This document shows positions 21,928 through 26,798 of a DNA stretch of 30,127 nucleotides, one piece after another. Each line of letters opens with the position of its first letter. The stretch's first letter is position 1. Both the position numbers and the translations under genes were made by a program. Below the pieces are notes generated by a model. That model ran no database searches. It worked only from the letters and a program-made list of their open reading frames with translations, and was not told where the DNA came from. The stretch is from Deltaproteobacteria bacterium (GTDB lineage Bacteria > SAR324 > NAC60-12): contig JAYOTF010000031.1 in the NCBI GenBank assembly GCA_038150265.1, positions 1-30,127 on the forward strand. Reading direction: 5' to 3'.

Positions 21928-22374
21928 ATGTCTGAGCATCAAGCCACGACTCGATGGACCCGAACCACAGAGGATTTCGAAATCAAGACCTTTGTCCGCG
22001 ATCATGAGATGACCTTTCAGGGAGGCGCTCTGCTTCCGGGGTCATCGGCTCCCGAGTATTCGGGAGACCCCGCCAAGGTGTGTCCGGAGGAAACCTTTGT
22101 CGCCGCGTTGTCGAGCTGTCACATGCTGACCTTCCTGGCGGTGGCGTCGCTCCGCAAGTTTGTTGTGGATCACTATGAAGATGCGGCCGTGGGGTGGCTG
22201 GAGAAAAATGAGGCAGGCCGGATGGCCATGACGCGCGTGGAGCTCAGGCCGAAGATTCAGTTTTCCGGCAAGCAACCGACGGCTGAAGAGCTGGAGCTGA
22301 TGCACGAGAAGGCGCACCGGGGGTGCTTCATTGCCAACTCCGTTTCCTGCGAAGTGGTCGTCGCCTCCGAGTAA
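21928..22374 (+). CDS. OsmC/Ohr-family protein
   Basis: GDP....PEE.FVAALSSCHMLTFL and AHRGCFIANSV. Confidence 0.9.
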   Translation: MSEHQATTRWTRTTEDFEIKTFVRDHEMTFQGGALLPGSSAPEYSGDPAKVCPEETFVAALSSCHMLTFLAVASLRKFVVDHYEDAAVGWLEKNEAGRMAMTRVELRPKIQFSGKQPTAEELELMHEKAHRGCFIANSVSCEVVVASE

Positions 22375-22384
22375 CCCCTTCCCT

Positions 22385-23017
22385 TCACCCGCTTGCTGGC
22401 TCTCCTGCAAACCGGAGGGCGGCAAAGGCTTCCGGAGTGTTGGCATCCTGCACCTGAAGCTGCTCCTGGGGTTCCGGAGTCACCGGAACGATCTCCCACC
22501 CTTCCCACAAGGCAATCGGACGGCGCTTGCCCTCTGCTCGCAAGCGAGGGGCGTGTTCCAGCACGTCGCGGCGGTACCAGGCGAGCAGCGGATTGGCAAT
22601 GCCACCGTTCTTGGTGCAGGCGCCATCTGCTCCCTGTCCGGCCTGCTGCAGGCGCAGCAGCCAATCGGTCCGGAGGCGTGGCAGGTCACAGCTCAGGACA
22701 AAGACCTGACGGAGTGACGGACTCAGCAACGGAACCGCATCGGCAAGGCCCTGCAGGGGGCCCTGGTCGGCCTGAGAATCCTGCCCCCACCTGAGGAAGG
22801 CCTGAGGAAACTGGGGAAAGGAGGCCTGTGGCTGATCCCTCGCCCGCATGATCACGACTTCAGCAACCAGCGGATGCAGCACGTCCAGGAGGTGCTCGAG
22901 GAGGAGCTTCCCGTCAAGCTCAAGGAAGGCCTTGTCGGCTCCCATGCGGGTGGAACGCCCTCCGGCGAGCAGAATGGCACCGGTTTCAGTCTGAAACGGA
23001 AAGGAAGAGACAACCAT
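22385..23017 (-). CDS. mobA: Molybdenum cofactor guanylyltransferase
   Basis: ILLAGGRSTRMGADKA, D....QGPLQG, LSCDLP, PLLAWY, DANTPE. Start uncertain (ATG 23017 or TTG 23050). Confidence 0.88.
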   Translation of the reverse strand: MVVSSFPFQTETGAILLAGGRSTRMGADKAFLELDGKLLLEHLLDVLHPLVAEVVIMRARDQPQASFPQFPQAFLRWGQDSQADQGPLQGLADAVPLLSPSLRQVFVLSCDLPRLRTDWLLRLQQAGQGADGACTKNGGIANPLLAWYRRDVLEHAPRLRAEGKRRPIALWEGWEIVPVTPEPQEQLQVQDANTPEAFAALRFAGEPASG

Positions 23018-23131
23018 GAAGACCTGCAAACAAGGAGAAAGGGGTTGCAACAGAAAACCATGTTCTCCGGGAGCCGCAAGCTCTTCTGGTTCGGAATGCT
23101 GAGGAAGTCGAGTGAGGAAGCAGAAAGGGTG

Positions 23132-23414
23132 CTGGAGCTACTGTCCCGCCATTGGCTTGATGGAACCATTCCACAAACCATATCAGTAGCCCCAGACAAA
23201 CGGGGAAGCCAGGAATTGCTCAGCGAGCGAAGCGCTCAGGCTGGGGCTACCGTCCCGCCATTGATCCAACAGAACCACTCTGTCAAACCATGCAGTAGCC
23301 CCAGATCCAAGCATTCTCTGTCAGGAATCTTGGGGGTGCTCAGGTTCAGACTGGGGCTGCCGTCCCGCCATTGATCCAACAGAACCACTCCGTCAAACCA
23401 TGCAGCAGCCCCAG
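23132..23414 (-). repeat. Three tandem 64-nt structured repeats (candidate ncRNA modules) with 45- and 46-nt spacers
   Basis: Copies at 23132-23195, 23241-23304 and 23351-23414. Copies 2 and 3 are identical at 61/64 positions. Each copy is closed by a 12-bp terminal inverted repeat. Confidence 0.88.
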
Positions 23415-23683
23415 AGACTGAACCTTTGCTTTTGTCGAACATCCACGACTTGGAGATCGCAGGTGAATGGGTTCGCAACCATCCGACGGGGATTACTCTG
23501 ACAGAGTTGAAAAAGCGTGGCTATACGTAAAAATACTTAATTTATCTATTCTTATCCGGATAGCGTTTTTCGGACAAAATTTCTCGGAGAGAGTTGCTTT
23601 TTTTGACCATGGTTTGCAACTTTTTTCGAGCATGCGAGAATGACTCGATCTCTCTGACTCCACCCTTCTTCGCCAGTGACCAC

Positions 23684-24529
23684 ATGCGTTTCCTGAAATA
23701 CCACGCCTTGGGTAATGATTACTTGGTGTTAGACGCCCGAGACGTCTCGGAGCCGTTGACGTCTCACCAGGTCCAGACGATCTGCCACCGCCACTACGGC
23801 ATCGGTTCCGACGGCATCCTGCTGGGGGCTCCGGAGGCCGAGGAGGGACATTTTGTGCTCAAGATTTTGAACCCGGATGGGAGCGAGGCGGAAAAGAGCG
23901 GAAACGGGTTGCGCATCTTCGCTCGCTTCCTCTGGGATGAGGGAGTGGTGCAAAGTGCCCCCTTTTCCATCCAAACTCCTGGGGGCGTGGTGCAGGCTCA
24001 GGTTCGAGAAGATGGCCGGGAGGTGACGGTCGAGATGGGTCAGGTGTCTTTTTCCAGCGAGGTGATTCCGGTAGCAGGACCGCCCCGAGAAGTGCTGGAG
24101 GAAACAATTGAGGTGGGTGGAGAGGAATTGACCTACTGCGCCGCGACCATTGGCAACCCGCACTGTGTCGTCTTGCGGCCTTCCCGCGCCGATGAGGCCC
24201 AACGCCTGGGACCGCTGCTGGAGACCGCGCCTCGCTTTCCCAACCGCACCAATGTGCAGTTCCTTGAAGTGCGAGACCGAGACCGCATCCGGATTGAAAT
24301 CTGGGAGCGGGGCGCAGGCTACACCCTGGCTTCCGGAAGCAGCAGCAGCGCCGCCGCCGCGGTTGCCCACCGACTGGGGCTGTGCGATTCAACGCTCACC
24401 GTTGAGATGCCCGGAGGAGAGATTCACATTGAAATTGATGCGGATTATCGAATTCGCATGCGCGGCGGCGTCACGCGCATTGGCGAAGGGCAGCTGGCCC
24501 CGGAAGCGTGGAGCGCTCCTCCTCAGTGA
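23684..24529 (+). CDS. dapF: Diaminopimelate epimerase, Ser/Ser active-site variant
   Basis: F.KYHALGNDY, RHYGIGSDG, NPDGSEAEKSGNG, GNPHCV, FPNRTNVQF, WERGAGYTLASGS, PGG. Confidence 0.9.
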   Translation: MRFLKYHALGNDYLVLDARDVSEPLTSHQVQTICHRHYGIGSDGILLGAPEAEEGHFVLKILNPDGSEAEKSGNGLRIFARFLWDEGVVQSAPFSIQTPGGVVQAQVREDGREVTVEMGQVSFSSEVIPVAGPPREVLEETIEVGGEELTYCAATIGNPHCVVLRPSRADEAQRLGPLLETAPRFPNRTNVQFLEVRDRDRIRIEIWERGAGYTLASGSSSSAAAAVAHRLGLCDSTLTVEMPGGEIHIEIDADYRIRMRGGVTRIGEGQLAPEAWSAPPQ

Positions 24530-24980: not shown

Positions 24981-26798
24981 ATGAGAGGAGAAGCCGTTGA
25001 GCGCGAGTTAGAGAACCGGTTCCGGCAACGGACGATTCAGGAGGCCCACCTGGCGCAACACGACCAGGAACGCACAGACGCTGTGCCGGTGCCGCCGCTG
25101 GTGTGTTCTCCCGACCTCCCCAACCCGGTTCAGGCGCACATCCAGCGCCTGCTCGCTGAGCTCGTCCGCTTTGCCGCCCAGCAGGGCTTTCCCCTCCGGA
25201 ATCCCCAAAACACCGTCCGCGTTTCCACCCCGGAAGCCCTCTTTCACGAACAGGGACGTCCCGTTCCCTCCAGGCTCAAGCTCCCTGCGGTTCAACTCCG
25301 TGTGACGCCGCAACAGCGCCTGTACACGTTGCTGCTGCCGGCGGTGATGAAGAGCAGCGAACCGCTTCTGGAGGGGCTGCGCCTGCTCCTGGCTCGCTTG
25401 CTGGGCGAACAGTTTCTCGAAGAGTCGGTCTGGCCGCTGGAGTTTTATCGCGACTCGGGGCAAGTGACGGAAAGCGCCGTCAGTGTGGGAGTCGAGGAAC
25501 AGCTGGCGCTGCTTGGAGTTCTGGAGTTTCCGTCTCCCACCCTGGAAAGCCTGCTCCCGGAACCTCCTGCCCGGAAAAAGGTTCCGGACTGGGTGGGCTC
25601 TCAGCGCAAGCAGCACCTGCAGGCCTGGCACCGTCAGTTTCAGGAAGACGCGCTGCCCGAGCCTTCACGAGAGGCCCTGCAGCAGATCTTCTCGGAATTC
25701 CTGACCGCCTTTCAGCACGACCGAAGCGCCTTCCTGCAGCAAGCCAGCGAGGCTGTGTGGCGACTGAATGCCCAGGCCCACTTCCTCCTTCCTCACGAAG
25801 TCCCCGGGTTCCGGCTCCTGCAGGAGCAGCGTCCGGAGCACTTCCTCCGGTCCGTTGGCATTCGTTTGGAAGAGCGTGTGGCGCTGGCGGAATTTGTCCT
25901 GGAGGCCAAGGCCTTCCTGGAGGCGGGTGCGGGAGAGGCGGTGGAGGAGTGGCGGCAGGCCTTCCGGCTGAAGTCTCGGGAGCTGCGCCAAACTGAAGGC
26001 GTGGCCACGCTCTTCATTCCAGAGGTGCTTGGGCCCGAGGCACGTCAAGCGGAGGAGCAGCAGTGGACGCTCCGGCTCCTCAAGCTGGCCAGGGAACAGC
26101 AGGTGCCAGGACCGCGGTGGCGCAAGTGGATTCCCAAAACCCGTCAGGCCTATGAACAGGGGGTGACTCAGAAGCTGTTTGAGGCGCTCCATCGACTCGA
26201 TCAGCTGGCACAGCAACCGGACCCCAGTCAGAAGCTCCCGGAGCTGGAAAAGCTGGGGCACTCCCTTCGGTACCGCATCCCACAGTTCCGGGAGCTGCGG
26301 AGTGCGCTAGGCGCCGTTGTGGACGTCTGTGAGGGGCTGGTTGATGAGCCACGAGGCCAGCGGTTCTCGCTGGAGGCGTTTGGGAAGGCGTGGAGCTACG
26401 TGCTTTCCGTGGCGCTCATCCTGGACTACCATGAAGCGCATCCGGAGCAGAAGATTGTGGGCAACCAGCGCTTCAATTCAGACCGCTACCGCCAGTGGGT
26501 GCTGCAGGAAGCCGAGCGGCGTGCTCGCCTGAGCGTCAATCACTTCCACGGCGTGCTGCTGTTGCTCAAGGCGCTCTATCCGGAAACGGCGTCTGCACCA
26601 GAACACGGGTTGCCGCTTCTGCGTCGCCTGACCCTGCAGCCACTGCCGATTTTGCGCTTCTTTCTCCACCAGATCGAGACCCCTCTTCTGGAGAATCCAA
26701 AGTACGGGCTGGAATATCGTCTCAAAAAATTGGAGAATTATGCCCATGCCCTCTCCCGGGCTTATGCAAATCGGCATCAAGAGGAAATTCCCCCATGA
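24981..26798 (+). CDS. Hypothetical protein (605 aa, predicted alpha-helical)
   Basis: Long L/E/Q/R-rich ORF with a GGAAGG RBS. Stop overlaps the next start (ATGA). No motif recognised. Confidence 0.75.
   Translation: MRGEAVERELENRFRQRTIQEAHLAQHDQERTDAVPVPPLVCSPDLPNPVQAHIQRLLAELVRFAAQQGFPLRNPQNTVRVSTPEALFHEQGRPVPSRLKLPAVQLRVTPQQRLYTLLLPAVMKSSEPLLEGLRLLLARLLGEQFLEESVWPLEFYRDSGQVTESAVSVGVEEQLALLGVLEFPSPTLESLLPEPPARKKVPDWVGSQRKQHLQAWHRQFQEDALPEPSREALQQIFSEFLTAFQHDRSAFLQQASEAVWRLNAQAHFLLPHEVPGFRLLQEQRPEHFLRSVGIRLEERVALAEFVLEAKAFLEAGAGEAVEEWRQAFRLKSRELRQTEGVATLFIPEVLGPEARQAEEQQWTLRLLKLAREQQVPGPRWRKWIPKTRQAYEQGVTQKLFEALHRLDQLAQQPDPSQKLPELEKLGHSLRYRIPQFRELRSALGAVVDVCEGLVDEPRGQRFSLEAFGKAWSYVLSVALILDYHEAHPEQKIVGNQRFNSDRYRQWVLQEAERRARLSVNHFHGVLLLLKALYPETASAPEHGLPLLRRLTLQPLPILRFFLHQIETPLLENPKYGLEYRLKKLENYAHALSRAYANRHQEEIPP

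Follow-up and report, generated by a model that had tools for sequence, protein, structure and literature searches.

Why is a 64-nucleotide (nt) element present in three tandem copies directly upstream of a gene for a MobA-like protein, a candidate molybdenum cofactor (Moco) guanylyltransferase, and does it act in DNA or in RNA? We addressed this question in a 30,127-nt stretch of DNA from a bacterium of the SAR324 lineage (contig JAYOTF010000031.1), the whole of which is referred to as the window. An earlier reading of the sequence alone (the sequence-only reading) had described three 64-nt units with a period of 109-110 nt, and a repeat search and Tandem Repeats Finder (TRF) agree with this description, with identical unit limits. 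Three direct repeats lie in register at positions 23127-23196, 23236-23305 and 23346-23415 with a spacing of 109 and 110 nt, each containing a 64-nt hairpin core (Table 1), and TRF reports a period of 110 with a score of 281 for the repeat region. The repeats lie in the gap of about 670 nt between the divergent mobA-like gene (minus strand) and dapF (plus strand), and the array sits on the mobA-sense strand, within the leader of about 500 nt of the mobA-like gene. From the results given below we conclude that the array most likely represents a gene-control element which is new and of narrow distribution, and whose function would lie in the control of mobA.

The units fold into a conserved RNA hairpin on the minus strand

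The minus-strand folds of units 1, 2 and 3 reach -32.5, -34.7 and -37.3 kcal/mol with z scores of -4.13, -3.89 and -4.21, and 0, 2 and 0 of 200 shuffled sequences, respectively, folded equally well, whereas the plus-strand folds of the units are weaker (-23.7 to -25.8 kcal/mol). The three units of the window were aligned with four units of two related genomes (alignment A2, seven sequences), for which RNAalifold independently predicted 26 base pairs, i.e. a stem P1 of 12 bp, a stem P2 of 11 bp and three pairs, CAU/AUG, which extend P2. The 12-bp P1 of the sequence-only reading is borne out by this alignment, and so is its P2 hairpin, whose stems differ between copies while the loop is kept. 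P2 is longer than had been drawn, and the proposed CAAUGGCGGGA junction between the two stems is mostly paired; since P2 extends further, this junction resolves into a bulged A and a 6-nt bulge, GCGGGA. Together with the 5-nt loop RUGGK, these are the unpaired parts of each unit. The GCGGGA bulge is invariant in all seven units, as is the UGG of the loop, which occurs as GUGGU, AUGGU or AUGGG.

Standard pairs are found in 178 of the 180 stem cells of A2. Among the 26 pairs, 13 never vary, nine vary on one side only, three vary on both sides and one departs in a single cell; the compensatory change from A-U to G-C in P1, which had already been noticed by eye, is present in alignment columns 14/62. 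If the partner columns are slid by 1-3 positions, pairing falls to 22-47%, and the pairing percentage and the covariation score are each matched by just two of 500 shuffles. P1 is also conserved in sequence (8 of its 12 pairs never vary), even at a distance of one full turn of the helix from the bulge.

The strand on which the element acts had been deduced from A-C mismatches that become G-U pairs on the minus strand. Indeed, G-U pairs, which are A-C mismatches on the plus strand, occupy 29 of the 180 stem cells (counted from the pair table), and both the fold energies and a covariance model derived from A2 (R1) favour the minus strand, with R1 scoring 80-93 bits on the mobA-sense strand versus 13-23 bits on the antisense strand. 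These results support the view that the units are an RNA structure under selection and that the minus strand is the acting one, as the sequence-only reading had held.

When the entire leader of 541 nt is folded, the three hairpins are retained; neither the minimum-free-energy nor the centroid fold of this leader contains a competing structure, and for none of the units was an alternative pairing seen. A kink-turn, a pseudoknot between loop and bulge, and base pairing between the bulge and C-runs further 3' were checked by eye and rejected, as no consistent complementarity was apparent. A fourth, degenerate copy overlapping the mobA start was rejected as well (local alignment score 18, matched by 169 of 500 shuffles).

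The units match no known RNA family or repeat class

A scan of the whole window with Rfam 15 (4227 models) at the gathering score returned two tRNAs and nothing on the units. When the region 22950-23750 was scanned at E<=10, the sole match was CRISPR-DR8 (14.4 bits, E 7.5) at 23012-23051, which is at chance level and lies outside the units. The Moco riboswitch model RF01055 (threshold 36 bits) gave no match on 22950-23750 even at E<=10. This negative result is meaningful, because the same model recognizes an element directly 5' of moaA in the same genome with 68.8 bits (contig C15:16835-16953, plus strand; L074:1836-1954). The units thus match no Rfam family, in keeping with the earlier statement that they match no known riboswitch, including the Moco motif, and as a structured, tandem cis-regulatory leader they make up a new RNA family whose general kind is known.

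Other classes of repeats were rejected likewise. A CRISPR (clustered regularly interspaced short palindromic repeats) array does not fit, because the repeats are 64-70 nt long and 67-94% alike, the spacers retain partial conservation (48-65%) between species, and the array is flanked by mobA and dapF. A coding repeat does not fit a period of 109/110 nt, which is not a multiple of three, and the overlapping open reading frames at 22874-23374 (plus) and 23236-23478 (minus) have no Pfam match. In the two related genomes the reading frame stays open from the last unit into mobA; these frames do not represent a conserved N-terminal extension, since the conserved block in front of mobA (Table 1) is read in another frame than the overlapping frame of the window.

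Throughout the 3.39-Mb genome to which the window belongs, BLAST and R1 found no further copies, so that the three units are all there are, beyond short chance matches: the next-best match of R1, with 17.9 bits, falls within the coding sequence of a UPF0102 gene (contig C5), and a 29-nt BLAST match on contig C45, considered as a further copy, was not recovered by R1 at E<=10. Copies dispersed over the genome in the manner of repetitive extragenic palindromic (REP) elements or miniature inverted-repeat transposable elements (MITEs), which the sequence-only reading had named as speaking against its proposal, were accordingly not seen. We rejected a dispersed repeat of the REP, bacterial interspersed mosaic element (BIME) or MITE type, because the units are confined to one locus in this genome and in both related genomes.

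The units occur in one genus, always upstream of mobA

When R1 was run over 45 genomes of the family, 64 of the order and 88 of the phylum, only three genomes of the same genus exceeded 25 bits, namely that of the window (G000) and two others (G001 and G002). They carry seven copies (three in G000, three in G002, one in G001), all of which are sense-oriented directly upstream of mobA in 3/3 carrier genomes. In G002, the three copies have the same spacing and also lie between dapF and mobA, and its dapF protein is 86% identical to that of the window; in G001, the single copy is located 5' of mobA, and the upstream neighbour is a co-directional YdjM-like gene, not dapF. The covariance model and the search of related genomes, both proposed by the sequence-only reading, thus added only two carriers, of the same genus and with the units upstream of mobA. 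A 24.2-bit match in a further genome (G034) was rejected as a unit, since it is a plain GC hairpin without P2.

Pattern scans led to the same picture. Among one genome per species, 13 loci were found, of which only L048 (three copies) and L056 (one copy) score 86-93 bits, while the other 11 reach at most 15 bits and lack the helices. In JGI metagenome contigs a strict pattern gave 0 loci and a loose pattern 15 loci, the best with 15.1 bits; in viral contigs 0 loci matched, and no BLAST match to the units was obtained in plasmids and phages. The same 50 nt, with a short hairpin that ends in CAAUGGCGGGA, were met at L046:1492-1541, L050, L059 and L065, and L070 shows a pattern match only. This stretch was rejected as a unit, as it lacks P1 and scores 14.8 bits, and it was read as a chance pattern match to unrelated sequence.

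Individual copies are conserved between species

Orthologous units of G000 and G002 are 95.3% (unit 3), 93.8% (unit 2) and 87.7% (unit 1) identical in the unit alignment, and 93.8, 95.2 and 87.7% in the alignment segments. The spacers are conserved to a lower degree (Table 1), and the segment from the last unit to the ATG is 57.9% identical. At fourfold-degenerate sites, the same two genomes agree in 47.0% of cases in dapF (62/132) and in 53.8% in mobA (50/93). The unit of G001 is 83-84% identical to those of the window, with a P1 identical to that of unit 2, and the mobA fourfold sites are 30.9% identical (17/55) in this comparison, i.e. saturated.

Within the window, unit 1 is 75-77% identical to units 2 and 3, yet it shares 87.7% identity with the proximal unit of G002 (unit c), and the two proximal units have a signature in common, GAUAUGG and AGCUCCAG-CACCC. 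Since the proximal unit differs from its neighbours yet matches the proximal unit of G002, we conclude that the array is older than the split of these species and that its members have been kept individually. The conservation of the units, together with this positional orthology, is strong evidence that the array is functional and speaks against a repeat that is neutral or selfish.

Signals in the leader and contigs from public sequencing runs

Intrinsic terminator-like sites were not found in the region 22300-23800, which includes the spacers and the part between the array and mobA. Directly 3' of the last unit, all three genomes have a 40-nt tract which is the most C-rich, G-poor 40 nt of the leader (C 18/G 4 in G000, C 20/G 2 in G002 and C 13/G 3 in G001). 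Strand-specific 40-nt windows with C>=18 and G<=4 make up 0.126% of the genome. The sequence of the tract itself is poorly conserved, as it belongs to the 57.9%-identical segment. Such a composition is typical of Rho loading sites, and Rho is encoded in the genome (705 bits). What one would look for in a Rho-dependent attenuator, i.e. a C-rich, G-poor tract after the hairpins and an encoded Rho, is hence present; termination itself is a prediction from the sequence.

Two further parts of the leader are conserved. The 22-nt block at 23067-23088 is identical in G000 and G002, although it lies inside the 57.9%-identical segment, and it may be a translation-initiation part of the output. Further upstream, at a distance of about 105-115 nt from the first unit, all three genomes share the core TTTTACG(T/G)ATAG of a conserved box. 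Since this box (TTTTACGKATAG) has no second copy in the genome, a role as a regulon-wide operator was rejected. A single TCCGGA palindrome lies at 23556-23561, where the mobA-dapF gap is AT-rich.

The stretch is matched in whole or in part by 20 public sequencing runs, five of which contain at least half of the sampled words. The labels of the matching runs are estuary, aquatic, pond, salt marsh, seawater and aquaculture, and two of them are metatranscriptomes with small shares. We compared contigs of these two metatranscriptome runs with those of two DNA runs. In the RNA libraries, contigs extend over 23171-23249 joined to 23360-23476 (X14) and over 23300-23466 (X18); the DNA-run contigs reach 23591 and 23700. 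None from the four runs extends below position 23035, where nearly all of the mobA coding sequence is located. At most, the RNA-library contigs hint weakly at an RNA form of the leader, and they are proof of neither transcription nor attenuation. The join 23249/23360 in X14 skips exactly one 110-nt period, which could represent a two-unit population variant or an assembly collapse.

Table 1 Features of the mobA-dapF region, listed along the mobA-sense strand. Identities refer to the related genome G002; scores of the units are those of covariance model R1.
Feature	Position	Strand	Remarks
dapF	23684-24529	+	TIGR00652 at 234.5 bits
Conserved box AAATTAAGTATTTTTACGTATAGCC	23519-23543	-	candidate promoter or operator
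5' part of leader, conserved box to unit 3	23415-23518	-	together with the box 83.3% identity; unalignable to G001
Unit 3	23351-23414	-	5'-most on the RNA; GCGGGA bulge 23363-23368; 92.9 bits
Spacer between units 3 and 2	23305-23350	-	65.3% identity; no terminator-like site
Unit 2	23241-23304	-	GCGGGA bulge 23253-23258; 92.9 bits
Spacer between units 2 and 1	23196-23240	-	47.8% identity; no terminator-like site
Unit 1	23132-23195	-	mobA-proximal; GCGGGA bulge 23144-23149; 80 bits
C-rich, G-poor tract resembling a Rho utilization (rut) site	23092-23131	-	directly 3' of unit 1
Conserved block CAGAAGAGCUUGCGGCUCCCGG	23067-23088	-	just 5' of the candidate mobA start codons
MobA-like nucleoside triphosphate (NTP) transferase (candidate Moco guanylyltransferase)	22385-23017	-	ATG 23017; alternative in-frame TTG start 23050

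A cis-acting leader element as the favoured interpretation

Three functions had been considered for the array from the outset, i.e. a multivalent sponge RNA, a processed RNA array and a tandem leader of mobA. Of these, the mobA leader fits best, because the units are sense-oriented upstream of mobA in 3/3 genomes despite a differing neighbour and no terminator intervenes; the sponge and the processed array are less likely, as the array lacks a terminator of its own and the loops lack GGA. We give about an even chance to the interpretation that the array is a cis-acting leader element, which binds a trans-acting factor and gates read-through into mobA.

According to this proposal, the mobA mRNA would begin with a leader containing one to three very stable 64-nt hairpins, and the invariant GCGGGA bulge, the bulged A and the RUGGK loop would serve as recognition surfaces for one trans-acting factor. 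Every extra copy would add a binding site and would thereby sharpen or strengthen the response. Occupancy by the factor would set whether RNA polymerase continues into mobA, and the likeliest output would be the loading of Rho on the C-rich, G-poor tract after the last unit; alternatively, access to the conserved block 5' of the start codon could be controlled. A protein is somewhat more likely as the partner than a metabolite, because the hairpins are very stable, the 12-bp P1 is near-invariant and no competing pairing was found. Cis-regulatory RNAs are known in one to three copies, as described in the available portions of two publications (PMC9481103, PMC2408646).

However, several points weigh against a leader element of this kind. 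What the rut-like tract contributes is an argument from composition only, which suggests Rho-dependent attenuation. A scan of the minus strand for the sigma-70 consensus found no promoter and did not call the conserved box AAATTAAGTATTTTTACGTATAGCC. The RNA-library contigs are unstranded, have a depth of about 3-4, possibly stem from contaminating DNA and break inside the repeats like the DNA contigs do. For none of the units was an expression platform found in the form of a terminator-like site or of a competing fold of the whole leader, and the rut-like tract follows. Recent transfer or gene conversion, instead of recognition, could also explain why P1 is nearly invariant. The covariation statistics are thin, because the copies total only seven, from three closely related species, and the three pairs that vary on both sides are unremarkable in themselves, being equalled in 138 of 500 shuffles. 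Lastly, 27 loci of MobA orthologues from other genera carry no unit (R1 with filters off, best 16.2 bits), from which we conclude that the unit is not required for mobA control in general.

Alternative interpretations

The alternative that survives best is a tandem metabolite riboswitch, in which each hairpin would be an aptamer for guanosine triphosphate (GTP) or another guanine nucleotide, for Moco, or for (bis-)molybdopterin guanine dinucleotide (MGD/bis-MGD), and three aptamers in series would produce a steep, 'digital' response. As would be expected of a riboswitch, the element has a conserved structure and precedes a gene of cofactor biosynthesis, lying in the 5' leader and sense to mobA (seven copies in three genomes), and its unpaired GCGGGA and UGG are invariant and framed by covarying helices. 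Moreover, the same genome already places an RNA sensor, the RF01055 element, before moaA, and rod-like aptamers exist. The copy number of one to three resembles that of known classes, with 13 doublets and two triplets for Moco and 12 triplets for c-di-GMP-I according to the accessible part of PMC9481103, a triple arrangement of Moco and tungsten cofactor (Tuco) elements is discussed in the portion of PMC2408646 at hand, and rare candidates limited to one genus exist, e.g. Fibro-purF (excerpt of PMC7668255). Yet the unit is a simple, continuous 26-bp hairpin of -32 to -37 kcal/mol, whose GC-rich 12-bp P1 is unlikely to switch, and neither a terminator or anti-terminator nor an alternative sequestering the ribosome-binding site was found for any unit. 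A small-ligand pocket would also leave the conservation of P1 a helical turn away from the bulge unexplained, and the association with a single gene gives little guidance on a ligand. Overall, we regard a metabolite riboswitch as rather unlikely. It is improbable that the hairpin represents specifically a new aptamer class for MGD/bis-MGD or GTP, which would make the array a three-aptamer digital switch of mobA beside the Moco/Tuco riboswitch of moaA.

We ascribe a similarly low probability to a trans-acting small RNA or a CsrB-like protein sponge, which would be made from its own or a processed transcript and would titrate a protein via three UGG-type motifs per unit. The array is repetitive and multivalent, with three RUGG words and a GGGA bulge per unit, the genome has a gene for CsrA (89.7 bits), and the RNA-library contigs map to the leader, which is a weak point in favour. 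Nevertheless, no terminator follows the array or separates the units, the adjacency to mobA and the orientation are fixed in all three genomes, and the species with a single unit would have a poor sponge. Furthermore, the loops contain no GGA, an unpaired GGA occurs once per unit, in the bulge, and the GGA of the stem is changed to AGA with a better pair in unit 2; nothing similar was found elsewhere in the genome.

An element for RNA stability or processing without any sensing, whose units would be RNase III substrates or 5' stabilizers that set the half-life of the mobA mRNA, has in our view only a small chance of being correct. The long, near-perfect helices of 26 bp, which are interrupted by a bulge, would suit such a role, as 26 bp are long enough for double-strand-specific RNases, and the units, which are very stable, form autonomously when the leader is folded as a whole. 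However, a generic double-stranded substrate needs no invariant bulge and loop, and the maintenance of a triplication with a differentiated proximal unit between species suggests specific recognition.

Finally, a non-functional or selfish palindromic DNA repeat that was amplified locally and lies upstream of mobA by chance is very improbable: its tandem direct repeats with palindromic arms and its very narrow distribution (3/88 phylum genomes) would agree with such an origin, but there is one locus per genome with positional orthology of differentiated copies across species, the identity of the units is far above that of neutral sites, the G-U pairs are strand-asymmetric, and no match was found in phage, plasmid and viral collections.

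Genes of the locus and molybdenum cofactor context

The protein encoded downstream of the array matches Pfam family PF12804 at 3.8e-31, and its top NCBIfam model is TIGR02665 (MobA), with 88.5 bits under a cut-off of 151.85; its sequence matches in the PDB are all MobA (8/8). MobA commits Moco to the bis-MGD form, which is used by enzymes of the dimethyl sulfoxide (DMSO) reductase family. The genome contains at least four molybdopterin-oxidoreductase genes (PF00384 five times, two in one gene), and it encodes a second MobA-like paralogue on contig C46 (L073:3770-4369, minus), which is MocA-like (TIGR03310 at 167.9 bits, under the cut-off). Since this other paralogue is MocA-like and located beside XdhC genes, and since molybdopterin oxidoreductases are present, the gene in the window is the best candidate guanylyltransferase for bis-MGD enzymes. 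The MocA-like gene is flanked by two maturation genes of the XdhC family, with SufS/SufU and MadB/MadC-like genes nearby.

The Moco element upstream of moaA aligns without a P3 stem, a lack that has been tied to the sensing of the tungsten cofactor (Regulski et al. 2008, PMC2408646, as far as its available text goes). Elsewhere in the window, an open reading frame of 605 amino acids, which is located 3' of dapF (24981-26798, plus strand), has no Pfam or NCBIfam match, and two neighbouring tRNA genes lie on the minus strand at 1463-1536 (68.9 bits) and 1548-1634 (57.4 bits; long variable arm).

Comparison with known systems

In the literature searched, no mobA-associated RNA motif turned up, and to our knowledge no control of the MobA step at the RNA level has been known. 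If the array functions as proposed, it would represent an undescribed RNA family controlling mobA. The 64-nt unit is small and easily synthesized, and its natural one- and three-copy versions suit the study of tandem RNA modules. Its value is limited by its occurrence in three uncultured aquatic species of one genus; for now it is a well-supported orphan motif, which adds no new principle.

Several known systems share single traits with the array. Like the CsrB/RsmZ sponges, it consists of repeated hairpins displaying a short G-rich word; however, the loop word is A(N)GGA in these RNAs and RUGGK in the units, and the array has no terminator of its own and is fixed before mobA. The mgtA and ribB leaders are Rho-dependent attenuators, and as in the mobA leader, a structure is followed by a C-rich, G-poor tract and there is no intrinsic terminator, whereas the sensing domain is unrelated. 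The architecture of the unit is reminiscent of the eukaryotic iron-responsive element, which likewise has a helix-bulge-helix-loop form with an invariant bulge and loop and a covarying upper stem, and which occurs in one to several copies in an untranslated region; its sequence is unrelated, the host of the units is bacterial, and the protein partner of the units is only proposed.

Regarding distribution, the closest parallel is Fibro-purF, which is likewise known from few sequences of one genus and always lies 5' of one biosynthetic gene, with 30 unique representatives (PMC7668255, in the part available) compared to the seven copies of the unit in three species. In contrast to Fibro-purF, the units are tandemly repeated and have a different fold and gene. 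Regarding the pathway, the Moco/Tuco RNAs of RF01055 likewise act in cis as structured parts of the leaders of molybdenum-cofactor genes, and they occur as singlets, doublets and triplets (accessible sections of PMC2408646 and PMC9481103), as do the one to three units here. The Moco RNA is a multi-stem fold of about 135 positions, whereas the unit is a single bulged hairpin of 64 nt, and there is no match in sequence or structure. While the Moco element of this genome precedes moaA, the units precede mobA, i.e. the step after the synthesis of Moco.

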